64,000 bases of DNA from Candidatus Omnitrophota bacterium (GCA_963828495.1 CAWHFJ010000009.1:298338-362337); one strand, 5' to 3'. Shown: positions 3,182 through 64,000, counted from the stretch's first letter. Program-made: numbers and translations. The notes: generated by a model from the sequence alone, not told the origin.

Positions 3182-3190
3182 GGAAAAAAT

Positions 3191-5083: not shown

Positions 5084-5602
5084 TTATTCTTCCATCAACC
5101 GCTTTTTATTGTAGATCATGTTTTCGCGGGAATATTCGGCGATATTGAGTTTGCCTGTGTCCATGCGGATGGCATCTTCCGGGCAGACCTCAACGCAAAA
5201 CCCGCAGTAAACGCATCTGCCCAGATCGAGGATGAATTCAGCGGGGTATTTTTCGATTCTTGGGTCCGGATGTTCTGCGGCTGTAATTTCGATACACCTG
5301 GCAGGGCAGACGGTTTCACACATCATGCAAGCCACACAGCGCACAGAACCATCCTCGCGTTGCGTCAGCCGGTGACGGGTCCTTGAGCGAAAAGCTAATG
5401 GCCGCGGCTTTTCCGGATATTGGTATGTGGCCGCCGCCGGAATATCCCGGCAAAGCCCCACCGCATGAAGCATGTGCAGAGATAAATTACGGAAGAAATG
5501 TTTGGAGGTAATCCAAACACCGCTAAACAGCGAAGGGATATACGTATTTTCCCACCATGTCAACTGGCGGCGATTAGTTTGTTCCCACCCAGGATTTGCC
5601 AT
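5084..5602 (-). CDS. nuoI: NADH-quinone oxidoreductase subunit I (2x[4Fe-4S] ferredoxin-type)
   Basis: Two CxxCxxCxxxCP motifs are present (CVACMMCETVCP, CVYCGFCVEVCP). It sits directly after nuoH. Confidence 0.9.
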   Translation of the reverse strand: MANPGWEQTNRRQLTWWENTYIPSLFSGVWITSKHFFRNLSLHMLHAVGLCRDIPAAATYQYPEKPRPLAFRSRTRHRLTQREDGSVRCVACMMCETVCPARCIEITAAEHPDPRIEKYPAEFILDLGRCVYCGFCVEVCPEDAIRMDTGKLNIAEYSRENMIYNKKRLMEE

Positions 5603-5606
5603 AAGT

Positions 5607-9485: not shown

Positions 9486-9487
9486 AA

Positions 9488-9925
9488 TTAGCTGTTCTTA
9501 TCAATTAATTCGTCAATTTTCTTCTTGTTTAAACAACCTGTGTATTCCTTATTAACCTGCATCATCGGCGCTGTTTCACAAGCGCCCAGACACTCCACCA
9601 CGCTCAAGCTAAATTTGCCGTCAGGCGTTGTTTCTCCGGGGTTAAGGCCTAGTCTTTCTTTCAAATGGGCAAGGATATCTTCGCTCCCGTGTAAAGCGCA
9701 AGAAGTGGTTTGGCAAACGGAAAAATGGCATTTGCCTTTTTTGGTCTGATGGAACAAGTGGTAGAAAGAAACCACTTCATGCACACCAACAACCGGAATG
9801 CCCAAATACGCCGCCATGTTCTTTTCTGCCAGCGGTGATATCAGGCCTTCTTTGTGTTGGATATACTGCAGCGCCGGCAAAAGCGCCGCCCGCTTGTGCT
9901 CATACTTGGCTACAATTTTATCCAA
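9488..9925 (-). CDS. nuoE: NADH-quinone oxidoreductase subunit E
   Basis: Thioredoxin-like 2Fe-2S protein with the cysteine pattern CQTTSC...CLGACETAP. It sits between nuoD and nuoF. Confidence 0.88.
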   Translation of the reverse strand: MDKIVAKYEHKRAALLPALQYIQHKEGLISPLAEKNMAAYLGIPVVGVHEVVSFYHLFHQTKKGKCHFSVCQTTSCALHGSEDILAHLKERLGLNPGETTPDGKFSLSVVECLGACETAPMMQVNKEYTGCLNKKKIDELIDKNS

Positions 9926-9971
9926 CTCTTGTAAATACTCTGCGGTAAAAATAACACCCTCCCCTTAATTG

Positions 9972-11294
9972 TTATCTGTCCAGCTCCCCGGCAATCATAT
10001 TCACCGAACCAAACGTCGGGACTAAATCGGCCATCATCCCGCCGACCAAACATTTAGGCAGCGCCGCCATGATCGCAAAACACGGCGGATGAACACGGAC
10101 ACGCCATGGTTTGTCACGGCCATCCGAAACAATGTAAAATCCCAGCTCTCCATTGGCCCCCTCGACGGGAAAATACGCCTCGCCCGCAGGAGGACAAATC
10201 CCATGGCCGTACATGACTAACTTAAAGTGGTTCATCAGCCCTTCGATATTGCCATACGTGTCTTCTTTGGCAGGCAACACAACGTCTTTTCTCATCGCGT
10301 TAATGGCGCCATAGTATTTCCTGGTACTCCCTTGCAAGGTGGGGTCCGTCGTCACTTCATCTTCAATGAATTCCTGGGTTTGGCCCATCTTGGCCCGATC
10401 GACCATTTGGGCCGCCGTAATCACACAGCCCGTCAGATCCCCGGCAATGGGGCCGTCAGGAATTTGCTGCAAGCACTGCTCAACCATCCTTAAGGATTGC
10501 TCCATCTCTGCCATGCGAACAAAATAACGGTCGAGATTATCCCCCGTGGTCCCCGTGGGCACATCAAACTCCAGGCGATCATAGATCAGATAGGGGCTCG
10601 CTTTGCGCACATCATAGGCGACACCCGTCGACCTTAAAAATGGTCCGGTAATCCCATAAGAAATCGCATCTTTGGAAGAAATCCTGCCCACATCCTTCAT
10701 CCGGTCGAAAAAAATACGGTTACGGGTCAACAAATCATCCACCTCAATGAGCACTTTGCGGACCTCTGCTATTTTCCGCAAGGCTTTCTGCGCAAACCCT
10801 TCGGTTAAATCCGCTTTAACGCCGCCGATACGCACATACGAAACGGTTAACCTGGCGCCTGTGACGTCTTCCACCAACTCATATAAATATTCGCGGGCCT
10901 GCATCATATACAAAAACACCGACATCGCGCCCAACTCCATGGCCGTGGCACCTATACACGTCAAATGGTCCGTGACACGCGAAATCTCGCTCATGATGAC
11001 GCGGATATATTTTGCCCGCAAAGGAATATCAATGCCCAATAATTTTTCAACACTCAACGCAAACCCGACGTTATTGACCAGCGGCGAGACATAGTTAAGA
11101 CGGTCCGTATACGGGAAGCACTGTGTATACATAACCGTTTCGCACATCTTCTCAAAGGCCCGATGGAGATAGCCGATCTCGACATCGACACCTTGTATTT
11201 TCTCCCCATCCAATGCCATAATAAGACGAATAACACCGTGCATCGCCGGATGCGAAGGCCCTACATTTAATAACATGGAGCGCGTCTCGGTCAT
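9972..11294 (-). CDS. nuoD: NADH-quinone oxidoreductase subunit D, with an extra ~45-aa insertion
   Basis: NuoD/49-kDa sequence (GPSHPAMHGVIRL, GYLHRAFEKM, C-terminal SVNMIAGELDR). At 440 aa it is long, with extra residues between PDGP and LPAKE. Confidence 0.92.
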   Translation of the reverse strand: MTETRSMLLNVGPSHPAMHGVIRLIMALDGEKIQGVDVEIGYLHRAFEKMCETVMYTQCFPYTDRLNYVSPLVNNVGFALSVEKLLGIDIPLRAKYIRVIMSEISRVTDHLTCIGATAMELGAMSVFLYMMQAREYLYELVEDVTGARLTVSYVRIGGVKADLTEGFAQKALRKIAEVRKVLIEVDDLLTRNRIFFDRMKDVGRISSKDAISYGITGPFLRSTGVAYDVRKASPYLIYDRLEFDVPTGTTGDNLDRYFVRMAEMEQSLRMVEQCLQQIPDGPIAGDLTGCVITAAQMVDRAKMGQTQEFIEDEVTTDPTLQGSTRKYYGAINAMRKDVVLPAKEDTYGNIEGLMNHFKLVMYGHGICPPAGEAYFPVEGANGELGFYIVSDGRDKPWRVRVHPPCFAIMAALPKCLVGGMMADLVPTFGSVNMIAGELDR

Positions 11295-11788
11295 CAGATT
11301 TGTGGTCCGATCAGGGGTTGACGTTTATTAAACGGATAATCCTTACACAACGGATGTCCTTGAAATGCCTCATACATCAAAAGGCGTTTACAATTAGGGT
11401 GCCCCTTGAATCGGATGCCAAACATATCCCAAACTTCTCTTTCATACCAGTTGGCAGAAGCCCAAAGGTCACAGAGCGTATCCACCTCGGGATTTTTTTC
11501 GTCAAGGGCGACCTTAATGCGGATCCGGTGGTTATGCTTAAGGGAAAAAAAATGATAGACAACTTCAAAGCGCCATTCTTTGGGGATCCGTCCACCGGCA
11601 TAAAACAAATAATCAACGGCGGTCAGGTCCATTAAAAAGTTGAAATCTAATTCCGGGGTTTCTTTTAAAAATTCGGCAACGGCCCTCAAGGCAGAAGCAC
11701 GGATCGTGAGCGTTTCATCCCCTCTAAAGGCGTGCGCCTCTAGGATTTCTTGGGCAAATTGTTCTTGGATTCTTTGTGTTGGTGTCAT
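11294..11788 (-). CDS. nuoC: NADH-quinone oxidoreductase subunit C
   Basis: NuoC/30-kDa-type sequence (ANWYEREVWDMFGIRFKGHP). It overlaps nuoB and nuoD. Confidence 0.88.
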   Translation of the reverse strand: MTPTQRIQEQFAQEILEAHAFRGDETLTIRASALRAVAEFLKETPELDFNFLMDLTAVDYLFYAGGRIPKEWRFEVVYHFFSLKHNHRIRIKVALDEKNPEVDTLCDLWASANWYEREVWDMFGIRFKGHPNCKRLLMYEAFQGHPLCKDYPFNKRQPLIGPQI

Positions 11789-12324
11789 AACGAAGATTCT
11801 ATATGTTTAATAGGCCCCTCGAAGGTCTGCTGCAACCCGGCAGGACGTCCTGTTTTGCCTCGAGGATCATACAGCGTTCTAGACTGCTCCCCTTTTTGTA
11901 TTTTTTCCTGGAGCTTGATTAACCCATCGATCACATTTTCAGGACGAGGAGGGCATCCCGGAATATAAATATCCACCGGAATAATGGTGTCAATGCCCAT
12001 CACGGTGGCATAATTATCGTAAAAGCCTCCGGTACACGTACAGACTCCGAAGGCCACCACCCATTTGGGTTCACACATTTGATCGTAGACGGTCTTTAAG
12101 ACAGGGGCCATTTTTTGGCTGATTGTGCCCACGACAAAAAGGACATCCGATTGCCTGGGTGAAAAACGCGGGAATCCGGCACCAAAACGGTCCTGGTCGT
12201 AATGCGACGCATTGGTCGCCATATACTCCATGCCGCAACAGGCCGTCACAAACGGATATTGGAAAATGGAAAATTTACGCGCCCAGCCTAAAGCGTCTGT
12301 TAACTTCGATGTAAAAAAATGCAT
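11785..12324 (-). CDS. nuoB: NADH-quinone oxidoreductase subunit B
   Basis: NuoB/PSST sequence (ACCGMEYMA, GVCTCTGGFY, YIPGCPPRPE). Confidence 0.92.
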   Translation of the reverse strand: MHFFTSKLTDALGWARKFSIFQYPFVTACCGMEYMATNASHYDQDRFGAGFPRFSPRQSDVLFVVGTISQKMAPVLKTVYDQMCEPKWVVAFGVCTCTGGFYDNYATVMGIDTIIPVDIYIPGCPPRPENVIDGLIKLQEKIQKGEQSRTLYDPRGKTGRPAGLQQTFEGPIKHIESSL

Positions 12325-22332: not shown

Positions 22333-22821
22333 TCATTGCTGCTCTTCGTGCTCTTGGGCGTCGTGGATCTTCTCATGTTCAAGTTTATGTTTATGCATCA
22401 AGGCGGTAAACTCTGAAAACTGTTGGGGCGTCAAAATACTCCTGACCGCAAGGACGGAATTAAGCCGGTCATCCGCCATTTGAGATTCCAGCGCTTTAAG
22501 TCGGCTATGAAGTTCATGGATTTTATTCATATCCAGCTGCGGCTTCATCAATTCCTGTTGAAAAACTTGTCTATACGCTTTCCCTTGTTCCCGGATAGCT
22601 TTCATTCGAGCGCGATGCTGCATTTTATTGTCTTCCAATTGTTTTTTTTGAATTTCTGTCAAATGAAGCTGACTGTAAATTTCCTGAATGCCTCCGCCGC
22701 CATGCCTCCATGTGGGAGAGGACACCTCAGCCTCCGGGGAGCCTTCCGCGTGCACCCAAGCCGTCGCGCCAAAAACACAAAGCCATAGGCCGCTGAATAA
22801 AACTATTCTTAACTGTGTCAT
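22333..22821 (-). CDS. Periplasmic Spy/CpxP/ZraP-family (LTxxQ) protein with a His-rich tail
   Basis: Signal peptide MTQLRIVLFSGLWLCVFGATAWVHA. Two LTxxQ motifs (LTEIQ, LTPQQ). The C-terminus is HKHKLEHEKIHDAQEHEEQQ. The start forms an ATGA overlap with the sigma-factor stop. Confidence 0.65.
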   Translation of the reverse strand: MTQLRIVLFSGLWLCVFGATAWVHAEGSPEAEVSSPTWRHGGGGIQEIYSQLHLTEIQKKQLEDNKMQHRARMKAIREQGKAYRQVFQQELMKPQLDMNKIHELHSRLKALESQMADDRLNSVLAVRSILTPQQFSEFTALMHKHKLEHEKIHDAQEHEEQQ

Positions 22822-23381
22822 AGAAGACCCTTTCCTTGAAGATTGCCTTTTAAAGACAATAATTTCTCCCTGGCCCTTTTCAACCTTGAACGCACCGTAT
22901 TGATGTTGATTTTTAAAGCTTGGGCAATTTCCTGATAACTTAACCCCTCGATGTTGCGCAACACGACGCACGCCCTCTGGTCAGGGGAAATTTCTCCTAA
23001 AAGATGCTCGACGAGACGGCTTTGGTAGTCCTGATTCATATGCGCCTCAACCTCACTGGGAGCGGGAGAGACACCCTCACCCCAGGCTTCATCAAAGGCC
23101 ACTGTTTTTGTTCTGGAAGCTTTTTTGGCAAAATTAATCGCATAATTAGCTGTGATCCTGTACACCCAAGTTTTGAAAGAAGATTCAAAACGAAAACTTT
23201 TCAGTTTATTGTAAATAATTAAAAAGACCTCTTGGGTCACTTCCCTGGCATCTTCCGTGTTATTGACGACACGTAACGCCACGTTATAAACAAAACTTGA
23301 GCTTGCCTTATACACCTCCTCAAAGGCCTGCACATCTCCTTGAGACGCCCTGACTAAAACATCTTCACTGATCTGGTCCAT
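22818..23381 (-). CDS. ECF-type RNA polymerase sigma-70 factor
   Basis: Region 2 (VYNVALRVVNNTEDAREVTQEVF, WVYRITANYAINF) and a region 4 HTH (LSYQEIAQALKININTVRSRLKRAREKL). Confidence 0.85.
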   Translation of the reverse strand: MDQISEDVLVRASQGDVQAFEEVYKASSSFVYNVALRVVNNTEDAREVTQEVFLIIYNKLKSFRFESSFKTWVYRITANYAINFAKKASRTKTVAFDEAWGEGVSPAPSEVEAHMNQDYQSRLVEHLLGEISPDQRACVVLRNIEGLSYQEIAQALKININTVRSRLKRAREKLLSLKGNLQGKGLL

Positions 23382-23385
23382 TCGG

Positions 23386-23775
23386 CTAATCCCCGCCGGT
23401 CAAATAACGATTCAAAATTCTACCGTCTTCGGCATCAGCTAATTTTAAAATATTCTCTTCCATCCATTGGACCCATGCAGGCCTAAGGGTCTCTTCAGAT
23501 AAAAATCTCACTCCGCATCGATAGCACGCTTCCTCTTCCCCCCTCTGTCTGCTAAACCATGTCAAATGACCTTGGGATGGGAAAGAAGGTATCTCGGCAA
23601 CCCTGAAACATATGACTAGCTTATGTTCAGGAACAAACAATTTATCCGTTGTAAACAACATCCCCTCTAGGCTAATATTAAAAATTCTTCCTTCCCCTCC
23701 TGTTTTTTGGTCGGGGATAGACCAGGTCACATCCAATTGTTTGCGCAATCGAAAACTTTGGCGGTGATCAATCAT
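23386..23775 (-). CDS. PilZ-domain protein (canonical c-di-GMP-binding motifs)
   Basis: RxxxR (RQSFR) and NxSxxG (NISLEG) motifs. AGGAGG lies 5 nt upstream of the ATG at 23775. The ORF-track start at 23808 lies inside a tRNA-derived repeat. Confidence 0.75.
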   Translation of the reverse strand: MIDHRQSFRLRKQLDVTWSIPDQKTGGEGRIFNISLEGMLFTTDKLFVPEHKLVICFRVAEIPSFPSQGHLTWFSRQRGEEEACYRCGVRFLSEETLRPAWVQWMEENILKLADAEDGRILNRYLTGGD

Positions 23776-23795
23776 GTGGCCTCCTACAAATAAAA

Positions 23796-23814
23796 AATTG
23801 CCTCGCATGGACTC
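23796..23814 (-). repeat. 19-nt perfect copy of the tRNA-Gln 3' end (pseudo-tRNA fragment)
   Basis: AATTGCCTCGCATGGACTC occurs at 23796..23814 and at 24016..24034. Upstream, GGTTC plus a 14-nt hairpin insert mimics the T-loop. Confidence 0.7.
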
Positions 23815-52080: not shown

Positions 52081-54538
52081 ATGTCACGCGATTTGAACAA
52101 AAAAGAAAAGATCATCCCGGTTTATATTGAAGAGGAGATGAAGAACTCCTATCTTTCCTATTCGATGTCTGTGATCGTCGGGCGCGCGTTGCCCGACGTG
52201 CGCGACGGGCTCAAGCCCGTGCATCGGCGCATCCTTTATGCCATGAGGGAGCTCAATCTCGAGCACAACAAGCCCTATAAAAAGTCTGCCCGTATCGTCG
52301 GTGAGGTGCTGGGCAAATACCATCCCCACGGGGACTCCGCGGTGTATGACACGATGGTGCGCATGGTGCAGGATTTTTCTCTGCGGTATCCCTTGATCGA
52401 CGGTCAGGGCAATTTCGGCTCCATCGACGGGGACGCGGCGGCCGCCATGCGGTATACAGAGGCGCGCATGGCCTCGGTGGCTGAAGTGATGCTGGATGAC
52501 ATCGAAAAACAGACGGTGGATTTTAGCCCCAATTTCGACGGGTCGCTAGAAGAGCCCGACATCCTTCCGGGCATGGTGCCCAATCTTTTGGTCAATGGGT
52601 CCTCCGGTATTGCCGTGGGTATGGCGACAAATATGGCCCCGCATAATTTAGGGGAAGTGGTTGACGGCATTGTGCATCTTTTGGACAATCCCGAGGCCGT
52701 GGTCAAGGATTTGATGAAATTTGTCAAAGGCCCGGATTTCCCGACCGCGGGCATTATCTGCGGCAGGGAAGGGTTTATCGACGCCTACAATACCGGCCGC
52801 GGGAAGGTGCTGATCCGTGCCCGTGCCAGCATCGAGCAGCAAAAGGGCAATAAAGAAGCGATCATCATCACGGAGCTTCCTTATCAAGTCAACAAGGCCA
52901 ATCTTATTTTGAGCATGGCTGATTTGGTGCAGAACAAACAAATCGACGGGATCACCGATATCCGCGATGAAAGCGACAAAGACGGGATCCGGGTGGTCAT
53001 AGAACTTCGTCGCGACGTGGATGCCAATATTGTGCTCAATTATCTTTATAAGCACACCCAGATGGAAGTCACTTTCGGGATCATCAATTTGGCGCTGGTC
53101 AATAAATCGCCGAAAGTGCTTGAATTTAAAACAGCTGATGAACCATTATATTGCCCATCGTCGCGTGGTGATTCGCCGGCGCACGCAATTTGATTTGGAC
53201 AAAGCGGTTCGCCGGGCACATATTTTAGAAGGGTTTAAGATCGCGTTTAAGTATTTAGACGAGATCATAAAAACCATCCGCGCCTCCAAGACGACAGCAG
53301 GATGCCAAAGAAGCCTTGATCAAAAAATTCGACCTTTCCGAGGCCCAAGCCCAGGCCATTCTGGAGATGCAATTACAGCGCCTGGCGGCCCTGGAGCGCG
53401 ATAAAATCGAGGAGGAATATCAGCAGCTGTTAAAAGACATTGATAATTACCGCGGGATTTTGGCTTCTGAAAAGAGGGTGGATGCGATCATTAAAGAAGA
53501 ACTGGCCGAATTGAAAAAGAAGTACGCGGATGAGCGCCGTACCGAAATCGCCGGGCGTGCGGAAGATATCGAGATCGAGGACATGATCGCCGATGAGGAC
53601 ATGGCCATCACCATCAGCAATAAAGGGTATGTCAAGCGTCTGTCCATAGACGGCTACCGTTCGCAGAAACGCGGGGGCAAAGGGGTCACCGCCATGACCA
53701 CGTCCGATGAAGATTTTGTGGAGCGCATGTTTGTGGCCTCTTCCAAAGATTTTTTATTGATTTTTTCCAATGCAGGCACGGTGCGCTGGCTTAAGGTCTA
53801 TGAGATCCCGGTGGCCTCCCGTACGGCCCGGGGCAAGGCCATCGTGAACTTGGTGTCGTTTAAGCCCGAGGAGAAAATCAGCGCCATCGTGGCGGTCAAG
53901 GAATTCAGGGAAGACCAGTTCTTGGTATTTGCCACCAAAATAGGGCTGGTTAAAAAGACCAAGGTTTCGGCGTATAATAACCCGCGCAAAGGCGGCATTG
54001 TCGGCATCGGCGTGGAAAAAGGAGACGAGCTGATCGGCGTCGCTTTAAGCAACGGCAAGGAAGACGTTCTGTTGGCGACACGCCAGGGAATATCTTTGCG
54101 GTTTCCCGAGAAACAGTTGCGCGACATGGGACGTTCCGCCAAGGGGGTGCGGGGCATCAATTTGGAAAAAGGGGATTTTGTCGTCGGCATGCTGGTGTTT
54201 GCTCCGGATGTGGACAAGACCGGCGCCAAGCTTTTGTCCGTATGTGAATTGGGCTACGCGAAACGTTCAGACTTTGCTGAATACCGCACCCAATCCGCGG
54301 GGGCAAAGGGATCATTAATGTAAAGATCACCGAGAAAAACGGAGCGGTGGTGGGGATCATGGCGGTTTCTGACGGGGATGAGATCATGGCGGTGACCAAA
54401 CAGGGCATGGTGGTGCGTTCCTCTCCCTCTGAGATTCGGGAAACCGGCCGCAGCGCCGTGGGGGTGCGTTTGATTGCGCTGGAGAAAGCCGACAAGTTGT
54501 CGTCCATTGCTCATTTGGTCAGCCACGAAGAGGAATAG
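52081..54538 (+). CDS. gyrA: DNA gyrase subunit A, three frame changes as assembled
   Basis: Pieces 52081..53193, 53021..53404, 53316..54323 and 54347..54538 read as one continuous GyrA ([19 protein letters not shown] ... beta-pinwheel repeats). The frame changes near 53121, 53295 and 54295-54303 (a C/G run). Confidence 0.92.
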
Positions 54539-54559
54539 GAGAGTAAGGGGTTTATCTGC

Positions 54560-54588
54560 TTGACGAAAAAGAACGCCGGCAATATAAT
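54560..54588 (+). promoter_or_regulatory. Candidate sigma-70 promoter for tRNA-Glu
   Basis: TTGACG (54560..54565), a 17-nt spacer, then TATAAT (54583..54588), 25 nt before the tRNA 5' end. Confidence 0.5.
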
Positions 54589-54613
54589 ACCGATTCCAAG
54601 TCATTGTATTTTT

Positions 54614-54687
54614 GACCCCATCGTCTAGCCTGGTCAGGACACAAGCTTTTCAAGCTTGCAGCACGGGTTCAAATCCCGTTGGGGTCG
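54614..54687 (+). tRNA. tRNA-Glu (anticodon UUC)
   Basis: Acceptor GACCCCA/TGGGGTC, anticodon arm CAAGC-TTTTCAA-GCTTG, T arm ACGGG-TTCAAAT-CCCGT. No encoded CCA. Confidence 0.92.
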
Positions 54688-54709
54688 CTTTCAACTATCG
54701 AGGAGGACA

Positions 54710-55371
54710 ATGATGTTAACTATCTACGGTTCTGATTTATCCGCACCTGCCATCAAGGTCCGTTTGACCGCGAGCTTATTAGGCTTGCCTTACAAGTGGC
54801 AGATAGTCAACCTGCGCGAAGGCGAGCAAAAACAGGAATGGTTTTTGAAAATCAATCCGGTGGGCAAGGTGCCGGCCATGGACGATGACGGGTTTTATTT
54901 ATTTGAAAGCAACGCCATTTGTAAATACCTCTGTGACAAACAGGGCTCTTCTTTATACCCCAAGGACGCCAAAAAGCGTGCCACCGTTGATCAATGGATC
55001 GATTATGCTTCTTTTCATATGGGCGCTAATTTTATGCCGGTTGTGTATAATCGGGTTTTTGCCCCGCGCAGGGGGCAGGCCGGTCAATGAAAAAGCTATT
55101 GCCGACGCTCTTGAATTCCTCAAGCAGTACTTTCCTGTCATTGAAAACCAATTGACACAACACAAACACGTCGTGTCAGGCGGAGATATCATTAGCGGAC
55201 ATTATTTTATTGGCACTGCTCGAGCCGGCGGAAATGGCCCACATAGATTTAAGCGCGTATCCCCAATTAAACGCGTGGCGTACAGGGCTTAAAAAACAAA
55301 ATTTTTATACGAGTTGCTATAAAGAATATGGCGAAATGCTGAAAGCCCAGCCGCTGAAAGAAGACTATTAG
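54710..55371 (+). CDS. Glutathione S-transferase-family protein, two frame changes as assembled
   Basis: AGGAGG then ATG at 54710. The N-terminal thioredoxin-like domain has KINPVGKVPAMDDDGFYLFESNAICKYL. The frame changes near 55065 (G run) and 55190, and the C-terminus reads ..AYPQLNAWRTGLKKQ..KEDY. Confidence 0.75.
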
Positions 55372-56164
55372 ATGAAAGTCGCTCTTTTACAACTTTGTGC
55401 CGGGAAGATAAAAAGCCAATGTTCAACAGGCCGTCGCCATGTCCCAAGAGGCGCTATCGCAAGGGGCCGCATTTATGCTTTTGCCGGAAGTTTTTAATTT
55501 TCGTGGGACCGTAGGAATAAAAATTATTTGCAAAGGCGCGGAAAAAATACCGGGCCCATCAACACGACGCTTTTATTCCGCTGGCTAAAAAATACAAAGC
55601 CTCTTTCTTGTTGGGATCTATTTTAGAGAAAGCCACGTGCGATCACGCCTATAGCACCTCGGTGTTTATTGATCCTCAGGGGCAATCACCGCTCAATATC
55701 GTAAAATGCATTTATTTGATGCCCGTCTCGGGGAAGGATAGTCATTAAGGAAGCGGATCATTTGCTGGCTGGCCGCCGGCTCATGACGGCGAAGGCGGGA
55801 GAATTCAGGGTCGGGCTTTCTATTTGTTATGATTTGCGTTTTCCCGGCCTGTATCAAAATTATGGCCGCAGGGGGGTTGAAATTTTGACGGTACCGTCAT
55901 GTTTTACCAAGAAAGACCGGAGAGGCGCATTGGGAAGTCTTGCTGCGCGCCCGGGCTATTGAAAATTTGTGTTATGTTTTGGCCCCCAATCAGGTGGGCA
56001 GGACGGCCAGGGCATGCAAGCCTATGGGCACAGCATGATCATCTCCCCGTGGGGTGAGGTGATAGCGCAGGGCAGCGCCCAGGCCCAAGAAATTATTTTT
56101 GGCGAGATTGATCTTGAAGAAGTCAAGAAAGGCAAGGGCAATTTTACCGGGGATTGTGCCTTAA
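55372..56164 (+). pseudogene. Carbon-nitrogen hydrolase (nitrilase-superfamily) gene with about 7 frame changes
   Basis: Clean family-like segments sit in alternating frames: [122 protein letters not shown] and [14 protein letters not shown]. Breaks fall near 55412, 55565, 55685, 55738, 55915, 56000 and 56125. Confidence 0.7.
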
Positions 56165-56175
56165 GAGGAGAACAT

Positions 56176-57154
56176 ATGGCGAAACGGATAAAAGTGGCGG
56201 TGACCGGTGCGGCGGGCCAGATCGGATATGCGTTATTGTTTCGCATTGCCGCCGGGGAAATGTTCGGGAAAGACACGGAAATTGATTTAAGCCTATTGGA
56301 GCTGGAAAAAGCTTTGCCCGCCTTGCAAGGGGTGGTCATGGAGCTGGAGGATGGCGCCTTTCCTCTGTTGAGGGAGTTCGTGTCCATATCGGAGACCCGA
56401 ATCTTGCGTTTAAGGATATTGACTGGGCTTTATTGTTGGCAGCGTGCCGCGCCGTGAAGGCATGGAACGTGGCGACCTGCTTAAAGATCAACGGCGGGGT
56501 TTTTACTGTACAAGGCAGGGCCCTTTCAGAGCATGCCAAACCCGGCTGCAAAGTGCTCGTCGTCGGCAATCCCTGCAACACCAATGCGTTTATTGCCAAG
56601 AGTGTTTGTAAAAATATTCCCGCCAAGAATTTTTTTGCCATGACCATGCTTGATGAGAACCGCGCGCGGACTCAATTGGCGCAAAAAGCGCTGCGTAACG
56701 TGTCCCTGGTCAAAAATCTGGCCATTTGGGGAAACCATTCATCGACCCAATATCCGGATTTTTATCATGCGACTATCGACGGACATCCGGCCGTGGAAGT
56801 GATTAAAGACGAGGCATGGCTTAAGGGCCCATTTATTGAAACGGTGCAAAAAAGGGGAGCGCCATCATCAAGGCCCGCGGGCTTTCTTCCGCGGCCTCGG
56901 CGGCCAATGCGGTGATTCAGACGGTGCACAACATCACGACACCAACGCCTGCCGGTGAATTTTTTTCAGCCGCAGTTTCTTCAGATGGCAGTTATGGCGT
57001 TGAGCCGGGGATTATTTTTAGTTTTCCTTTACGTTCTAACGGCAAGGATTGTGAAATTGTACAAAATCTCAAGCATAATGAATTTGCCCAAAATAAAATT
57101 AAAGCCACCTTGGATGAGCTTTTAGCGGAAAAAGATGCGGTAAAGCATCTTTAA
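56176..57154 (+). CDS. mdh: Malate dehydrogenase (LDH-like MDH type 2), four frame changes as assembled
   Basis: GAGGAG then ATG at 56176. The sequence includes [44 protein letters not shown] and a C-terminus ending ..[10 protein letters not shown]. Breaks fall near 56383, 56428, 56482 and 56866. Confidence 0.85.
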
Positions 57155-57303
57155 ACAAGCTTACGGATTCGAAGGAACAGGAAATATTTAGTTTGACTTT
57201 TTATTGACCTTAACAAAAAATTAATATATGATTTTATTTATTGAAACATAATAAGTTAGAGAGAAATTATCTAGTAAAAAAGGGTAATTTTAGGGGCAGC
57301 AGC

Positions 57304-57332
57304 TTGCATTTTGAATAAATACCAGGTATACT
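57304..57332 (+). promoter_or_regulatory. Candidate sigma-70 promoter upstream of the PPIase/Tad-like gene block
   Basis: TTGCAT (57304..57309), a 17-nt spacer, then TATACT (57327..57332), in a ~210-bp AT-rich spacer. Confidence 0.4.
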
Positions 57333-57365
57333 TTACAAACATTGTCCAGTCAAGGAGATGATTTT

Positions 57366-58291
57366 ATGAGAAGGCCAGGAGGAATGGTGTGTGGGGTATT
57401 ATTTTTAACGTTGGGGGTTATCTCTTTGACCGGCTGTGACCTGCTGGGGATAGGGCCTAAAAAGCAAGATCATGCCAAACAGCACAGCCGCCGGCATCTG
57501 TAGAAGGGCCTTTGCCCAAGAATGTTTTAGCCCGTGTGGGTAACTGGACATTGACAACCGATGAGTTTAATGAACGGTTGAAACTTTTAAAGCAGGGCCT
57601 TCCGGATTTTAAAGACAATGACGCCAACACCAAAAAAATGGTTTTAGATGAACTTATTCGTCAGCAGCTTTTGGTCAAAGATGCCCAAGACTCGGGGATA
57701 GGCGAGAGCAAAGACATTAAAGATGCCGTGGAGGATTTTCGCAAAACCCTTCTTGTCCAGGAATTGGCCAATCGTCTGACAAAGGATGTCGCGGCCAATG
57801 AAACAGATGCCCGTCTATGGTACGATGAAAATAAAGATAAATTTGCCCAGCCGATCACCTGGAAGGTCCGCGAAATTGTGGTCCCCGATGAGGCGACGGC
57901 TAAAAACCTCTTGGCGCAAGTTTTGCAGGGTGGCGATTTTGCCCAGATCGCCCAGGCGCAATCCAAGGGGGCTACTGCAGCCATGGGAGGAGAATTAAAG
58001 CCATTCATGACCGGCAAAGCGCCTTTTGAGGCTATGCAAGCGGCGATTGCTAATCTAGGCGAAGGAGACCTTAGCACGGTATTCAAGGGGCCACAGGGGT
58101 ATTATATTGTCAAGGTAGATTCCAAAAAAGGCGGCACGGTCAAGCCTTTTGCCGATGTTAAAAATGATTTGATCAGCGGATTGACGATGCAAAAACAACA
58201 AGCGGTCATTTTGGAACATTTGAATAAATTAGCTGAAAAGAATAAAGTAGAAATTAATAAAGAGTTAGTCGATGAAACGACAAAACCATAA
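57366..58291 (+). CDS. Lipoprotein parvulin-type peptidyl-prolyl isomerase (PrsA/SurA-like), one frame change
   Basis: AAGGAG then ATG at 57366. Signal peptide with lipobox (VISLTGC). The frame changes near 57478 at an A run and joins ORF 57512..58291, which has a SurA_N-like region plus a PpiC domain (WKVREIVV..GGELKPF..GYYIVKV). Confidence 0.75.
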
Positions 58292-58309
58292 GGAATAGGG
58301 AGGCGGGAC

Positions 58310-59092
58310 ATGCCCTTAGAGAATAAAAAACAACTCTTGATTATTCTTGGAGCTGTGGCCGCCGGGATTTTTGCGGTTATTTTGACCAGCGGTTATGTCA
58401 AAAGCAGCATTGAAGGACAGACTGCGGCTTTGGCCGAACGCTACGAGGTCAAGCAAAAAGAGGCAGTGTCCCAAATCCAACAGAGAAGCGATCAGCAGAT
58501 GGCGGCCTTGGCTGGGGAGTTGCAACGTGTCAAAGCCGAGCAGGCGCAGGCCATACAAAAACAAATGGCCGCTTTGCAGTCAGAGATACAAAGCAGGCCC
58601 ATCCAGCAACAGGTCATTGCCCCAGTTAAAAGACCCAAGCCGTCGTTGGCTCTAAAAACACCGGCAGGCAAGCGTGCGGTGACGGTGATGATCGATTCCC
58701 TGGAAGCGGTGGGCGGACTGCTTAATGCCGGAGATTTTGTGGACGTGATAGCCGAATTGAATGTGCCCGCACAAACAGCGGAGAAAAAAACCGTGACCGC
58801 GATGATTTTTCAGGGCTTACAGGTCTTGGCCGTCAATACCAATCTGGATGAGCCGGGCCAGTACGATCAACAGCAGGCTCCGGCCTTAAAAATTACGTTT
58901 GCGGTTGACCCGCAAGAAGCAGGACTTTTAGCTTTTGCCAATAAAAATGGCAAACTGCAGTTAGCCTTGCGTTCTCCGGATGAAATCCAGACCCAAAAGG
59001 TGAAAGCCTCCACTTGGAAAACCCTGGCGGACTATGTGTTACAAAATGAGGGGTATAATATTCAAAATCCAGACGGGGAGACCGGGGAATAA
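58310..59092 (+). CDS. cpaB: Flp/Tad pilus assembly protein CpaB/RcpC-like
   Basis: N-terminal TM helix, a Gln-rich coiled coil, then PAGKRAVTVMIDSLEAVGGLLNAGDFVDVIA and a KLQLALRSP-type C-terminus typical of CpaB. Confidence 0.75.
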   Translation: MPLENKKQLLIILGAVAAGIFAVILTSGYVKSSIEGQTAALAERYEVKQKEAVSQIQQRSDQQMAALAGELQRVKAEQAQAIQKQMAALQSEIQSRPIQQQVIAPVKRPKPSLALKTPAGKRAVTVMIDSLEAVGGLLNAGDFVDVIAELNVPAQTAEKKTVTAMIFQGLQVLAVNTNLDEPGQYDQQQAPALKITFAVDPQEAGLLAFANKNGKLQLALRSPDEIQTQKVKASTWKTLADYVLQNEGYNIQNPDGETGE

Positions 59093-59152
59093 ACCCGCAG
59101 AGAAAAAATCAAACATTCAAATTTTTAGAGGAGGCAAGGAACTCTAACGGAT

Positions 59153-60881
59153 ATGAAACCCCATTTTCTAAAATATTTTTTTAGCATTGTCTTTATTTTT
59201 GTTTTTATGATGGCGCGAGGGGCATTTTTATCTGCGCAGGAGAATGCGACAGACACAGACGCTATTGATTTGGTTGTTGGGGATATTGAAAATGTAACGG
59301 CTAACGGTTTAATACGGGTGTCTATTACCAACCCGGAGATAGCAGATATTTCAGACGTCCAAAGCGGCAAAGTTTCGCTGTTGGCCAAAAGAGCCGGAGA
59401 GACAATTTTGTTTTTGTGGGACTCTTCGGGCAAGCGCAGCATGAAAGTGCGCGTGGTGAATGAAGATTTAAGCGTGGTCAAGGCCCGTGTGCAGAAGATA
59501 TTAGATGAAGCGAACATGTCAGGCATTTCTTTGCAAATCAACACGGATGAAGGCAAGGTCGTTGTGTCCGGGGCTGTTTCCAAGGACAATAAAGTCAGGT
59601 TGGATAAAATTTTGGGTGGCTATAAGGACAGCTTGTTGAATTTTGTTACAGAAGAAAAAGACGAGTCCTTGATCCAGGTGGATATGCAGATTGTGGAAAT
59701 CAGCACGTCTTTGGAGAAAGATTTGGGAATCCTTTGGGGGACGGGGAGTGGCGGGACAGGGACAGTCACTGTGGGTAGTGGGAGTACGAATTCCGGCGCT
59801 GTCAATCTTAATTATGGGGAAAATATGCCTTCGGGGCACAAATTTGCAGACCTTTTTAAGATAGGCAGTTTTCAGCGGACAACTCCGTTAGAGGCCACAG
59901 TTAATGCGTTGGTCCAAGAAGGCAAGGCACGGCTTATTTCCAAGCCCCGCCTGGTGGTAGTCAGCGGCAAACAAGCCAGTTTCTTGGTGGGCGGAGAAAT
60001 TCCCGTTGAAAACACGACCACTAATTCCATAGGGACTTCACAAACCACCAGCACGACCTATTCACAATATGGGGTTAATTTGATGGTCACGCCGACCCTC
60101 CGCGCAGGGAAAATCGATGTACAACTCAATGTGGATATTCGAGACATTGACTCCGCGCCGCCGGCTGGCTCGTCCAATAGTGGAAATGGCTTTTATTACG
60201 CGCTCGGCCCAGACCGACTTATTGATGGACAATAAGCAGACCATCGTACTGGCGGGGTTGATTAAATATTCCGACTCGGAACAAGTGACCTCGGTCCCGT
60301 TTCTTTCTAAAATTCCTATTGTGGGGGCCTTGTTTAGAAATCGTAACAACCCCGGGGATAGCAACACGGAAATGGTGATTATTGTGACACCGATGGTGCT
60401 TGCCGACAAGAAATTCGCGGACAAACAATTGGTGATGCCCACTCCGGCGGAGCGTCAGAGTTGGCAAGAAATAGATGCGAAGTATGAGCATGAACCTCTT
60501 GCCGGCAACAAGAGCACTGCCCCGGATAATAGCGCAACGCCGCTATCGGAAATGACGATCTACGCGCGCCTTATTCAAGAGAAAATTTCCAAGATGATTA
60601 CCTATCCACAGGAGGCCATGCAGAATTATTGGACAGGCACCGTGAAACTCAGGCTAAGGATTCTTAGAAACGGGACATTGGCTTCAGGTGAAGTTGTTCA
60701 ATCTTCAGGTCATGCGGTCTTTGATGAGGATGCGCTACGTGCCGCCCAAATGGGCGCTCCCTATGACGCATTTACGGCAGGGATGAATCAGGATGAGCTG
60801 GTTTTTATGGTCCCTATCGTTTATAATAAGGTGACTGAGGGGGGGCAATCGCTGCCGGAGAAAGTCATTGCCTCGTACTAG
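59153..60881 (+). CDS. cpaC: CpaC/RcpA-type secretin fused to a C-terminal TonB_C-like domain, one frame change
   Basis: Signal peptide, a pilus-formation N-terminal domain (IDLVVGDIENV..ITNPEIADI), a BON-like region and a secretin core (GKARLISKPRLVVVSGKQASFLVGGEIPV ... VPFLSKIPIVGALFRNR). The frame changes near 60175. The last ~95 aa (YPQEAMQNYWTGTVKLRLRILRNGTL..VVQSSGHAVFDEDALRAA) look like TonB_C. Confidence 0.8.
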
Positions 60882-60969
60882 GCGTCCTCTCGTTCGTCGC
60901 TGAAAAACGATCCTATCGGCATTAAATCTCCCCGTGACAAAATTGTAAATCGTGATAAAATAAAAAACT

Positions 60970-63144
60970 ATGTCTTGTAAAATCATAACAGTGTTCAGTA
61001 ATAAGGGCGGGGTGGGCAAGACCTTTATTGCGGTCAATATCGCGTGTGCCTTAAGCCTGAAGGCTAAAAGGGTGTTGCTTGTTGATTTGAGTTTACAGGC
61101 CAGCCAGGACATGGCGCGCATGCTCAATTGTTCGGCGACGTATTGTTTGGTGGATATTCTCAACGCCATGGAAAGCCCCCTTGCCGACACGATCAAAAAA
61201 CATGTGGTGACGCATACCAGCGGGCTGCATTTTTTGCCGGGCATACGTTCCCCACGGCAAAGCGGACATATTACGCCGGATAATCTGCGCGTATTCTTCA
61301 AAAAAGCGGCTGGTCAGTATGATTATATTATCGTTGACAGCGGCAGCACGTTTAGCGAGACTTTTATCAGTATCCTGGATTCCTCCAATCTGATTCTACT
61401 GGTGGCCACGCCGGACATTCTGGCGGTGTATCAAGTCAAAACCAGTTTGAGTATTTTGCAGAGCCTGCATTTTCCGGTCAAGATGGTCCGCTTGATTTTA
61501 AACCGGGCGGAAAGCCGGGGGGGTGTCGCCTGGCAGGAAGTCAAAACCGCCTTGGCCTGCGACATTTTTGCGTTGATCCCCTCAGACGGTAAGACGGTAG
61601 GCATGTCTTTAAACCGCGGGATCCCCTGCGTCATGGACAACCCTGACGCCAAAGTTTCCGGGACTTTTTTTGAACTGGCGGAACAATTAGAAAACGAAAG
61701 CATTTATGTGCAGGCGTCCGACGTCATCAAGGTGCGCGTCACGGACGATGTTTTCAATAAAACGGATGCGTTTTGGGAAAAATTCGGCATTAGTTCCAAT
61801 CCGGCCGCAGAGCTAGATTTTAAAAAAGAAGAAGACGAGGTCATTAAATTAAAAAGGGCCATTCATCATCGTTTAGTGGAGCGCATGAATTTACAAAAAA
61901 TGTCCCCGGAGACCCTCAATGACCCCTCCCAGGCCGTTCATATGCGTAAAGCGGCGGAGAAGGTTGTTACGGAATTATTGACGGAGACCTCGGGCGGGTT
62001 TCTCTCCAGCCATGAGGAGCGTTCCAAATTAGTCGGGGAGATCGTCTCGGAAGCGTTAGGGTTGGGCCCTCTGGAAGATCTGCTGGCCGACGAGACTATT
62101 ACGGACATCCTGGTCAACAATAAAGATGAAATTTTCGTGGAGAAGAACGGGAAGATTGTGCTGACGAATAAAAGGTTTGTGACTAATGAACAGGTCCGCG
62201 CCACGATCGATCGCATCATCGCGCCGTTAGGCCGCCGTATCGATGAATCGACGCCCATGGTGGACGCACGCCTGCCCGACGGGTCCCGCATCAACGCGAT
62301 CATCCCGCCATTGTCGCTCAACGGCCCCATGATTACGGTCCGCAAGTTTGCCCAGACCCGTTATACGATGGAGGATATGCTGAATCGTTTTAAGAGTCTT
62401 TCCCAGCCGATGGCGGATTTTTTAGATGCCTGCGTCCTGGGGCGCAAGAACATCATCGTCTCCGGAGGCACCGGTGCCGGAAAAACCACCCTGCTTAATA
62501 TTATTTCACACTTTATTCCCGACAATGAGCGCATTATCACCATTGAAGACGCGGCAGAGCTGCGTCTGAGCAAAACACATTGGGCCAGATTAGAAAGCCG
62601 TTCGGCCAACATTGAAGGCCGGGGCCAGGTAACGATCAGAGACCTTTTTATCAATACCTTGCGCATGCGTCCTGACCGGATTATTATTGGGGAGTGCCGC
62701 GGCCCGGAAGTTTTGGACATGCTGCAGGCGATGAATACGGGGCATGACGGTTCTTTGACCACCCTGCATGCGAACACCCCCCGGGATGTGCTTTCGCGTC
62801 TGGCTTCGATGGTTTTGTTATCAGGGATTGAACTGCCCCTGCGTGCGATTTATGAAATGTCCGCTTCCGCGATCCATATTATTGTCCAAATCAATCGGTT
62901 TTCCGACGGGTCGCGTAAAATCACAGCGATTTCCGAGATGACCGGAAGGATGGTGGATAACCTTCCGGAAATCAAAGACGTGTTTGTGTTTTCGCATAAA
63001 GGGGTCAATGCCGAAGGTCAGGTTATTGGAGAATACGAAGCGACCGGCTATGTGCCTAAATGTTTTGAAGATCTGCTTTCCAGGGGTGTAACACTCAGCA
63101 AAACCATATTTAGTAATAACAGCATAAGCCAAAATCCGGCGTAG
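60970..63144 (+). CDS. Single-polypeptide fusion of a CpaE/TadZ-like ParA-type ATPase and a CpaF/TadA secretion ATPase
   Basis: The N-terminal ~245 aa carry a deviant Walker A (SNKGGVGKTFIAVNIA). The C-terminal ~430 aa form a CpaF core (ITDILVNN, GGTGAGKTTLLN, ERIITIEDAAEL, RPDRIIIGECRG, GHDGSLTTLHAN). One uninterrupted 724-codon ORF. Confidence 0.85.
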   Translation: MSCKIITVFSNKGGVGKTFIAVNIACALSLKAKRVLLVDLSLQASQDMARMLNCSATYCLVDILNAMESPLADTIKKHVVTHTSGLHFLPGIRSPRQSGHITPDNLRVFFKKAAGQYDYIIVDSGSTFSETFISILDSSNLILLVATPDILAVYQVKTSLSILQSLHFPVKMVRLILNRAESRGGVAWQEVKTALACDIFALIPSDGKTVGMSLNRGIPCVMDNPDAKVSGTFFELAEQLENESIYVQASDVIKVRVTDDVFNKTDAFWEKFGISSNPAAELDFKKEEDEVIKLKRAIHHRLVERMNLQKMSPETLNDPSQAVHMRKAAEKVVTELLTETSGGFLSSHEERSKLVGEIVSEALGLGPLEDLLADETITDILVNNKDEIFVEKNGKIVLTNKRFVTNEQVRATIDRIIAPLGRRIDESTPMVDARLPDGSRINAIIPPLSLNGPMITVRKFAQTRYTMEDMLNRFKSLSQPMADFLDACVLGRKNIIVSGGTGAGKTTLLNIISHFIPDNERIITIEDAAELRLSKTHWARLESRSANIEGRGQVTIRDLFINTLRMRPDRIIIGECRGPEVLDMLQAMNTGHDGSLTTLHANTPRDVLSRLASMVLLSGIELPLRAIYEMSASAIHIIVQINRFSDGSRKITAISEMTGRMVDNLPEIKDVFVFSHKGVNAEGQVIGEYEATGYVPKCFEDLLSRGVTLSKTIFSNNSISQNPA

Positions 63145-63154
63145 GACCCTCCCC

Positions 63155-63490
63155 ATGGTCGTTAACCTGACCCGTCAGTGTACGATAGCGTCGAGTGTTA
63201 AAGTGGCCAGTAATCCCTGGCAACGTGTTAAAGGGCTGCTGGGGGCGCGCCATCTGCCTCAAAAAGAGGCGCTGGTCATAACCCGCTGTCAGTCCATTCA
63301 CATGGTTTTTATGAAATTCCCTATTGATGTGATTTTTTGTGATGCCCAAAATACAGTGGTGGGCTTGTGTGAAAACATCCAACCTTTTTGTTTTTCCCCG
63401 ATTTTTTGGAAAGCGTCATATGCCATTGAATTGCCTGCAGGCAGTATAAATGCTTCCAATACCCAAATAGGGGACCAAATGCAGATGTAA
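63155..63490 (+). CDS. DUF192 (COG1430)-like small protein
   Basis: 111 aa. RVKGLLG....AL.I..C.SIHMVFMKFPIDVIF and AIELPAG resemble DUF192, by my recognition only. Confidence 0.65.
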   Translation: MVVNLTRQCTIASSVKVASNPWQRVKGLLGARHLPQKEALVITRCQSIHMVFMKFPIDVIFCDAQNTVVGLCENIQPFCFSPIFWKASYAIELPAGSINASNTQIGDQMQM

Positions 63491-63546
63491 TTTCAAGACC
63501 GGGTCCTGCCTCGGCATTAATTTCACAGCATTGTCGAATTCCCACG

Positions 63547-63598
63547 TTGACGCAATATAGACTTGTGTTATAATAATGTCCAGTCTGGACATTATTAT
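63547..63598 (+). promoter_or_regulatory. Promoter plus a 29-bp perfect palindrome (candidate operator) upstream of the HTH gene
   Basis: TTGACG (63547..63552), a 16-nt spacer, then TATAAT (63569..63574). The palindrome ATAATAATGTCCAG-T-CTGGACATTATTAT (63570..63598) runs from the -10 box into the ATG. Confidence 0.45.
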
Positions 63599-64000
63599 GG
63601 GTGTTACCTATAAATTAAGAGAAGATGTTGTCCGTTTTATTATCAGCCAAAGGCAAAATAATCCTCTTTTTTCCTGCCGCCAACTGGCTGAATCCGTATC
63701 TCAACAATTTGGCATACGCCTTTCTAAGTCATCAGTTCATGATGTCCTTAAGGAATCCGGTGCAGTGACCCCCCGCGGGCGTAAACCCAAAGATAAATTT
63801 CAAATTCCTATAGAAAAAAAGAAACAGATTCAGGTTAGTTTATCCCAAGCAAGTACTGGCAAATCCCCCCGCAACAAAAGATCCTACGAGTGTCATTGCG
63901 AGCCCGCAGGTCGAAATTGCTTCGCCGTTAAAAACACTCCTCGCCATGACACGCAGAAGGGATCGCCCCCTCTTCAGAAGGAAGACATTAAGGAAGCTGA
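63597..64000 (+). CDS. HTH-domain protein, 3' end outside the window (regulator or transposase-like N-terminus)
   Basis: An open frame runs from the ATG at 63597 to the window end. It begins MGVTYKLREDVVRFIISQRQNNPLFSCRQLAESVSQQFGIRLSKSSVHDVLKESG, an HTH-like region. The distal part runs through a REP-like element, so the true length is uncertain. Confidence 0.45.
   Translation, partial: MGVTYKLREDVVRFIISQRQNNPLFSCRQLAESVSQQFGIRLSKSSVHDVLKESGAVTPRGRKPKDKFQIPIEKKKQIQVSLSQASTGKSPRNKRSYECHCEPAGRNCFAVKNTPRHDTQKGSPPLQKEDIKEA
63890..63952. repeat. REP/MITE-like imperfect inverted repeat carrying the GTGTCATTGCGAG core
   Basis: GTGTCATTGCGAG (63890..63902) pairs with CTCGCCATGACAC (63940..63952) at 12 of 13 positions, with a 37-nt spacer. 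The core is the same as in the 3099..3170 tandem repeat. Confidence 0.5.

Follow-up and report, generated by a model that had tools for sequence, protein, structure and literature searches.

The region from 57.3 to 64.0 kb of a 64,000-nucleotide (nt) stretch of DNA from a Candidatus Omnitrophota bacterium (GCA_963828495.1 CAWHFJ010000009.1:298338-362337; this whole stretch is called the window) is considered, with a probability of about 0.85, to hold the promoter-proximal six genes of a conserved Omnitrophota Tad (type IVc) pilus operon that is cut by the window. Judging from related genomes, the whole operon seems to span ~17-20 kb and ~20 genes, and the window to end inside gene six. The genes for the pilins and for the platform proteins TadB and TadC are missing because the window ends there. 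A preliminary description, made from the sequence alone, had regarded the locus as a minimal or atypical Tad-like one with genes for a peptidyl-prolyl isomerase (PPIase) and a DUF192 protein instead of the missing parts. The main result is a correction of this picture: the apparent stripped-down secretin-ATPase module reads as a complete-type Tad operon cut by the window edge, and the PPIase and DUF192 genes are additions to a full Tad set, not replacements. The Tad system is of an already described kind, and the locus is another member of it.

The gene order of the preliminary description agreed with the listing of open reading frames (ORFs) and with the Pfam and NCBIfam scans. The features are as follows.

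57204..57232, + strand: candidate operon promoter, TTGACC-17-TATGAT (10/12 consensus matches; a consensus match only)
57342/57366-58291, + strand: gene 1, SurA/PrsA-like parvulin PPIase lipoprotein (Rotamase_2, 73.8 bits)
58310..59092, + strand: CpaB/RcpC (PF16976, 85.7 bits), with an N-terminal transmembrane helix, a Gln-rich coiled coil and the RcpC domain
59153..60881, + strand: Tad-type secretin, with T2SS-T3SS_pil_N (PF13629), Secretin (PF00263) and a C-terminal TonB_C domain
60970..63144, + strand: fusion ATPase of 724 amino acids (aa), TadZ/CpaE-like (ParA/MinD) plus CpaF/TadA, intact in the window
63155..63490, + strand: DUF192 protein, 111 aa (PF02643 at 72.3 bits, cut-off 27, covering 2-95 of the 96 profile positions)
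63547-63574, + strand: internal sigma-70-like promoter, TTGACG-16-TATAAT with a TG extension (11/12 consensus matches)
63576-63592: perfect palindrome ATGTCCAG-T-CTGGACAT, candidate operator, between the -10 box and the start of HTHx
63598..64000, + strand: 5' part (134 codons) of the gene for a helix-turn-helix (HTH) protein, here HTHx, with a paired/Tc3-like HTH and a disordered linker; the C-terminal domain lies past the window end

The intergenic gaps within the locus are small (5-88 nt). The HTH gene has its own promoter, and its reading frame is interrupted by the window end.

Continuation of the operon in related genomes

GTDB species genomes were scanned with an alignment of a 451-aa family from the middle of the operon (the anchor family), which gave 65 Omnitrophota loci. 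These loci, from species-representative genomes, were assessed by tblastn and motif counts; individual loci and contigs are given L numbers. The source names on homologues of the ATPase, the HTH protein and the anchor protein were Candidatus Omnitrophica or Omnitrophota. The comparison of synteny that the preliminary description had called for showed a shared order, with the Tad genes continuing past the HTH gene. On the upstream side, the relatives have gyrB, gyrA, a glutathione S-transferase (GST) gene, CN_hydrolase, mdh, and then the PPIase, RcpC, secretin-TonB_C, ATPase, DUF192 and HTH genes. Past the HTH gene they go on, on the same strand, with pilins, TadE/G-like genes, TadB and TadC. 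The order was uniform among the 65 loci, with all genes on the + strand; the exception was a reversed weak HTH match in L070. The ATPase gene is included in 43 of the 65 loci, and the DUF192 and HTH genes were each present in 43/43. TadB/TadC were reached in 31 of these 43, at 11.5-16.8 kb (median 14.0 kb) downstream of the ATPase start, and in the other 12 the contig ends before this position. L050 was considered as a counter-example without TadB and was rejected: an ORF of the size of a transposase of the insertion sequence (IS) kind is followed there by the contig end.

The processing site of Flp pilins is G/xxxxEY, and ORFs with this motif and a hydrophobic stretch were counted as Flp-like. 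All 49 loci in which both flanks were available carried 5-11 (median 7) such ORFs between HTHx and the next large gene, and none was found on the minus strand of this interval across the 49 loci. The pilin motif of the relatives, G/QSTIEY, agrees with the Flp processing site, and two of their small ORFs matched Class_IIIsignal of Pfam at 25.6 and 27.8 bits (cut-off 23.7). The four TadE/G-like pseudopilins of the relatives have ~450-600, 75-90, 1150-1300 and 105-120 aa. In L007 and L008 two consecutive T2SSF genes were found (PF00482 at 58 and 67.6 bits in L007, cut-off 25.2). The full operon would thus run in the order PPIase, CpaB, secretin-TonB_C, fusion ATPase, DUF192, HTHx, 5-11 pilins, four TadE/G-like genes, TadB and TadC. 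A giant ORF is often next after TadC; in L008 the gene at this position encodes 20,849 aa.

The closest relative is L075, whose ATPase, DUF192 and HTH proteins are 95%, 90% and 75% identical to those of the window. On its + strand it has 8 Flp-like ORFs (e.g. KRGQSTVEYVLLV), then genes with TadE/G-like N-termini (582, 85, 1304 and 118 aa), and then a T2SSF gene (TadB) cut by the contig end. When the HTH protein was searched against metagenome contigs, the only relatives were at 75% and 68% identity, and its scan against genome contigs gave no match.

In the window itself these later components were not found. The preliminary description had reported the lack of a Flp pilin, CpaA/TadV and TadB/TadC in 57.1-64.0 kb, and the same is true of the entire 64 kb. 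The search of small ORFs for Flp or class III signals, as it had recommended, gave none in any frame of the window; the single candidate of the motif scan was false and lies inside an Nramp gene. Pfam scans gave no match to T2SSF or Peptidase_A24 among the 57 large ORFs of the window. The 47 large ORFs scanned in 1-53 kb were housekeeping only (nuo, TPR proteins, an ECF sigma factor, PilZ, tRNA synthetases, parAB, yidC, dnaA, dnaN, gyrBA), and 4 of the 47 had no Pfam match. An ordinary operon had been expected to show flp, tadB, tadC and cpaA downstream in the same orientation. In the relatives, flp, tadB and tadC are found in this way, but cpaA was not found within ~10 kb of the anchor gene in any of the 65 loci.

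Several points weigh against the assignment to a complete-type operon. We infer the continuation past 64000 in this genome from its relatives, and the two contigs near-identical to the window (L001 and L074; 100%-identical fragment P0239) both end 92 nt past the stop codon of HTHx. Three operon genes are frameshifted in the window, which may point to decay. Neither the window nor the related loci yielded a prepilin peptidase, which leaves the maturation of the pilins unexplained. Furthermore, the roles proposed below for DUF192, the PPIase, TonB_C and HTHx are suggested from sequence.

The common break of these same-species contigs after the HTH gene, together with the lack of a pilin or T2SSF gene in 64 kb, would also fit a truly reduced module. 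In such a module the operon would have been disrupted past the HTH gene, with the secretin, CpaB and ATPase working without pilins and a platform of their own, for example with components encoded elsewhere; a module of other function had likewise been proposed in the preliminary description. This is very unlikely. It has no precedent among the 31 species loci that reach far enough, all of which continue to TadB/TadC, and L075 reaches TadB before its contig end. In addition, contig breaks are expected where short-read assembly meets similar pilin genes, and L001 and L074 probably break where assemblers meet an array of such genes. In L003 (13956-16701; the same contig as L071) a pilin triplet (93, 117 and 110 aa) occurs twice in tandem, with an N-gap. 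The array of pilin genes would seem to be rich in repeats or variable between strains, and prone to break assemblies.

Interrupted genes in the window

The window was compared with L001, a 12.5-kb Logan contig found by exact-protein look-up of the fusion ATPase. It aligns with positions 52203-63997 at 97.6% identity, with 52 insertion or deletion (indel) events. An indel of net +5 nt at ~57476-57486 splits the PPIase gene in the window into 57342-57503, which holds the signal peptide and the lipobox, and 57512-58291. CpaB loses its C-terminus through a 1-nt insertion at 59081; without it, the gene would extend to ~59147 (278 aa). The secretin gene is split by a 1-nt insertion at 60184 into 59153-60235 and 60117-60881, and the matches to PF13629 and PF00263 are spread over both halves. 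L001 holds the PPIase (306-314 aa), CpaB (278 aa) and secretin (575 aa) genes intact.

These interruptions affect three of the five complete operon genes in the window. If they were real, the Tad operon of this strain would be decaying and its outer-membrane half would be non-functional; the loss of Tad complexes has been reported for some Omnitrophota lineages (PMC10066038). Such decay is considered unlikely. The gyrA, GST, nitrilase (CN-hydrolase) and mdh genes of the window (53000-57200) are likewise broken by several 1-2 nt indels each, and all of them are intact in L001. Since gyrA encodes an essential subunit of gyrase, repeated disruption of it speaks for errors of base calling or assembly and not for decay, and the same origin is probable for the frameshifts of the three operon genes. 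Furthermore, the ATPase and DUF192 genes are intact and identical to those of L001 (the ATPase is 100% identical to P0001 of that contig), and over the remainder of 57-64 kb the identity to L001, where every gene is intact, exceeds 99%.

Substitutions with respect to L001 showed a mosaic pattern: ~7% in 53000-57200 and <1% in 57-64 kb. This suggests a noisy or strain-mixed assembly, or recombination.

Components of the operon and comparison with other Tad systems

The AT-rich interval that separates mdh from the PPIase gene (GC content of 37% for 57000-57499) holds the candidate operon promoter. The PPIase has the lipoprotein signal MRRPGGMVCGVLFLTLGVISLTGC with the lipobox LTGC, and its match to SurA_N is weak. 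Its gene is immediately 5' of RcpC in all relatives with enough sequence there. In L006 (5531-7370), a tandem pair of parvulin PPIase genes precedes RcpC, and a 4,531-aa ORF lies some kb upstream of the Tad operon. The parvulin PPIase is the only lipoprotein in the operon, in agreement with the preliminary description, which had noted the lack of a TadD/CpaD lipoprotein. No TadD/RcpB/CpaD-type lipoprotein (pilotin) was found in the window operon or in the Pfam tables of the relatives' neighbouring genes. The SurA/PrsA-like lipoprotein might aid the folding of the secretin or the pilins, and would thus stand in for the pilotin.

CpaB showed no match to the SAF domain in the Pfam scan. The ~75 residues between its transmembrane helix and the RcpC domain (~residues 29-105) contain 22% Gln, are coiled-coil-like and are kept in the relatives: replacement of SAF by a Gln-rich coiled coil, as first described, was borne out. 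The intact CpaB of L001 matches TIGR03177 (pilus_cpaB) at 100 bits (cut-off 71). The TonB_C domain of the secretin matches TIGR01352 (tonB_Cterm) at 46.7 bits (cut-off 27.1), and the secretin-TonB_C fusion is kept in the relatives. CpaB and the secretin would form the periplasmic and outer-membrane conduit, and TonB_C might be an anchoring or partner-binding domain.

In the fusion ATPase, the N-terminal 250 aa are of the ParA/MinD type (AAA_31, residues 3-163, 59.9 bits; CbiA, 52.3 bits; ParA, 52.1 bits), and the C-terminal part matches T2SSE (PF00437, residues 363-638) at 198 bits (cut-off 24.9). The best NCBIfam match is the TadA family TIGR03819 at 322.9 bits, which is under the equivalog cut-off of 373. 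Neither a separate TadZ gene nor a receiver-like N-domain of the fusion ATPase was seen. More than 100 Omnitrophota homologues of the ATPase, at 64-82% identity, have the identical fusion architecture. The fused ATPase would power pilin extraction via the TadB/TadC platform, and DUF192 might be a cytoplasmic accessory of this ATPase. Some close relatives have an extra gene of ~350 aa without a Pfam match between the secretin and ATPase genes (L008, 1826-2875; L002, 8843-9928); it is absent from the window and from L001.

The prepilin peptidase is the sole component truly missing from the operon. In the relatives it was searched for by clustering all unassigned ORFs of the 65 loci, in stretches of up to 21 kb, and none was found within ~10 kb of the central anchor gene. 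Apart from the pilins and HTHx, this clustering gave just one further conserved extra family, namely divergent copies of the small TadE-like gene. The precomputed Pfam tables of the relatives' neighbouring genes contained no A24 family member. Prepilin peptidases are polytopic membrane aspartic proteases. DUF192 was considered as a substitute peptidase and was rejected: it has ~110 aa and no predicted membrane segment. The prepilin peptidase presumably acts in trans, encoded elsewhere in the genome.

In canonical Tad/Cpa systems, the tad genes of Aggregatibacter are arranged as flp-tadV-rcpCAB-tadZABCDEFG, and Caulobacter has the cpa genes. The operon described here has in common with them a CpaF/TadA-type ATPase, a ParA/MinD module of the TadZ/CpaE type, CpaB/RcpC and a secretin of the CpaC/RcpA type; in its relatives, Flp pilins (G/xxxxEY), TadE/G-like pseudopilins, TadB and TadC are also common to both. 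The order, however, is inverted: the outer-membrane genes are first and the platform genes are last. Moreover, TadZ is fused to TadA, the coiled coil of CpaB is in the place of SAF, and the secretin carries TonB_C. TadV/CpaA and TadD/RcpB/CpaD are lacking from the operon. Its extra genes encode the lipoprotein PPIase, the DUF192 protein, the HTH regulator, a set of 5-11 paralogous pilins and a TadG-like protein that exceeds 1,100 aa.

A complete Tad complex was described by Seymour et al. (2023; PMC10066038) in Velamenicoccus archaeovorus LiM (CP019384.1, 12382-29832). It belongs to the same phylum and to the same kind of system, and at ~17.5 kb and low genome coordinates it is similar in size to the operon here; this likeness is one of position, size and system kind, with the LiM genome lying outside the loci compared. 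TadB/TadC and an RcpA secretin were described as widespread in the phylum, with TadBC/RcpA present in 74/116 Velamenicoccia species, the RcpA of Omnitrophota groups with secretins of predatory bacteria, and the Tad complex was interpreted as an attachment or predation tool (PMC10066038). The text of that paper, as searched, makes no mention of DUF192, the HTH gene, the TonB_C of the secretin, the TadZ-CpaF fusion or a peptidase missing in cis. In addition, a 2026 preprint describes giant ORFs of Omnitrophota that are flanked by Tad or type II secretion genes.

Tad pili are already tied to a predatory or parasitic lifestyle in Omnitrophota. The fixed non-canonical set could matter further: DUF192, the HTH regulator and its conserved operator-like motif, the secretin with its TonB_C tail, the TadZ-TadA fusion and the PPIase lipoprotein. 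The same holds for the connection to the giant ORFs, which is physical and may also be regulatory; both offer testable handles on host attachment by uncultured nanobacteria. The Kil apparatus of Myxococcus xanthus is reportedly a Tad-like apparatus for contact-dependent killing, said to have been described by Seef and colleagues in 2021. The likeness is that of a Tad-like machine in a predator; it is a functional analogy only.

HTHx, DUF192 and a possible common regulation

The full HTHx has 364 aa in L001. Its AlphaFold model (42 homologues; mean pLDDT, the confidence score, of 82.6) has a three-helix N-domain, a disordered linker (residues 86-142) and a C-terminal 220-aa domain of confident alpha/beta fold. 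Foldseek placed the N-domain with the paired-domain HTH of Pax6/Pax5 (probability of 0.98-0.99; root mean square deviation of 1.5-1.7 Å). For the C-domain, it gave no PDB neighbour, and there was no Pfam match. The score of HTH_32 on HTHx was under its cut-off. Homologues at E <= 1e-5 numbered 97; they were from Omnitrophica wherever the organism was named, and those that could be located were all in the Tad operon.

A hairpin lies in the coding linker of HTHx. This region (63854-63950; hairpin at ~63890-63950) has the appearance of a miniature inverted-repeat transposable element (MITE) or repetitive extragenic palindromic (REP) element, GTCATTGCGAG...CTCGCCATGAC, and had been called a REP element in the preliminary description. 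The hairpin is present in a single copy in the window and is in frame, and its folding is no more than moderately favoured over that of shuffled sequence (z = -1.9). Compared with L001, the hairpin region has +1 and -1 indels 76 nt apart, so that the frame is shifted and then restored. At the same position L003 has a different but similar-looking element (translated VILSETKDP...RRMT).

The HTH gene and this hairpin might be taken for a mobile-element insertion, a remnant of an IS630/Tc3-type transposase, that displaced the rest of the locus. The N-terminus of HTHx is indeed weakly like a transposase HTH (HTH_Tnp_Tc3_2 at E ~1e-4, IS630/IS481 at ~20 bits), with all these matches under the cut-offs. 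However, no transposase DDE catalytic domain was found; there were only matches of ~60 aa to the HTH, at 20-24 bits against cut-offs of 31.5-224, and the alpha/beta fold of the C-domain is without a PDB neighbour. HTHx is at the same position in 43/43 species loci, with a conserved promoter and palindrome, and the distribution of its homologues and the in-frame single-copy hairpin in a disordered linker also argue against insertion, which is extremely improbable. The first proposal, missing parts beyond the window that were possibly displaced by an insertion, is supported as to their place by the relatives, which carry them downstream, but not as to displacement: HTHx is a resident of the operon.

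HTHx may be a DNA-binding regulator that acts at the palindrome near its own promoter. The palindrome is the only exact match in the window; 0.16 matches would be expected at <=3 mismatches. The promoter and the palindrome are kept upstream of the HTH gene in L001, L075, L068, L071, L008, L021, L052 and L054. In the 155 nt that precede HTHx, the 7-mer ATGTCCA/TGGACAT has a density of 7.9 per kb (38/48 loci), compared with 0.35 per kb overall, which is a 22-fold enrichment. Its density is 2.0 per kb in the first 620 nt past TadC (20/31 loci), before the next ORF, which is giant where the called genes are known. Since the motif after TadC is the same as that at the HTH promoter, a shared regulator of the pilus operon and the giant ORF is possible. 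The distribution of the motif may fit an HTHx that is an autoregulator and also acts on the promoter of the giant ORF. The operator-like motif is regarded as a modest lead.

Motifs like TTAATGTCCAnTCTGA are present in 2-5 copies after TadC in L008 (18020-18110), L015 (16635-16725), L048 (19380-19500), L054 (17605-17725) and L068 (18040-18060). In more distant relatives (L016, L017, L020, L023, L027, L029, L058 and L066), 2-3 copies of AATGTCCA(A/T)TCTG are found 700-1000 nt into the HTH gene; these are in frame in the linker and at the start of the C-terminal domain of HTHx, and code for NVQS/NVHS.

The DUF192 protein (COG1430) starts 10 nt past the stop codon of the ATPase gene and has no signal peptide; its PDB homologue is 3pjy (E = 0.0011). 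From its occurrence in the relatives it appears to be an invariant resident of the Omnitrophota Tad operon. A tblastn search of plasmids with DUF192 gave 6 matches. All five bacterial ones are in loci related to Tad or type IV pili, and the archaeal one is outside any pilus locus. Four of the five bacterial loci are full Tad-like operons, each adjoining a very large or toxin-type gene. The bacterial plasmid loci include the following.

Moraxella bovis, NZ_CP087831.1, 69503-85691 (L082): CpaB, secretin, ATPase, TadB, TadC, DUF192, TadE, RHS protein
Streptomyces, NZ_CP107897.1, 283125-299430 (L080), and NZ_CP107922.1 (L083): CpaF, TadB, TadC, a small ORF, three TadE/G, LysM protein, DUF192
Alkaliphilus, NZ_CP058558.1 (L079): prepilin peptidase, then DUF192

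The LysM protein of Streptomyces has ~1,130 aa, and in one of the two plasmids LamG and polymorphic-toxin genes come next. A third Streptomyces plasmid (H4) has an identical DUF192 match. In the Moraxella and Streptomyces plasmids, as in the operon here, DUF192 shares an operon with CpaF, TadB, TadC and TadE/G, and in Moraxella also with CpaB and the secretin. However, the plasmid DUF192 genes follow TadC or the gene for the large protein, whereas the one described here follows the ATPase gene. The plasmid proteins are only 30-40% identical to that of the window, and there is no HTHx gene there. No paper on the function of DUF192 or on its link to pili was found, as judged on titles and abstracts. 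The recurrent association of DUF192 with Tad genes across phyla is, like the operator motif, a modest lead.

Taken together, these two leads allow a tentative proposal that is rather doubtful at present: the Omnitrophota Tad operon might be a distinct elaborated variant, in which DUF192 is a Tad accessory common to several phyla and HTHx binds the motif AATGTCCAnTCTG / ATGTCCAG-N-CTGGACAT at its own promoter and after TadC. If both readings were true, a single regulon, serving host attachment or predation, would comprise the pilus genes and those of the giant surface proteins.

As for the surroundings of the locus, yidC, dnaA, dnaN, gyrB and gyrA are upstream of it in the window, and it begins ~10.7 kb after dnaA. 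PilZ proteins regulate some type IV pilus ATPases. At a distance of ~34 kb from the Tad operon, the minus strand has a gene for an ECF-type sigma factor (22818-23381) next to one for a PilZ-domain protein (23386-23808). The complex I (nuo) genes of the window form two blocks of opposite orientation, with three Proton_antipo_M subunits on the + strand (65-4495) and genes of the nuoI/H/G/F/E/D/C/B type on the minus strand (5084-12324).

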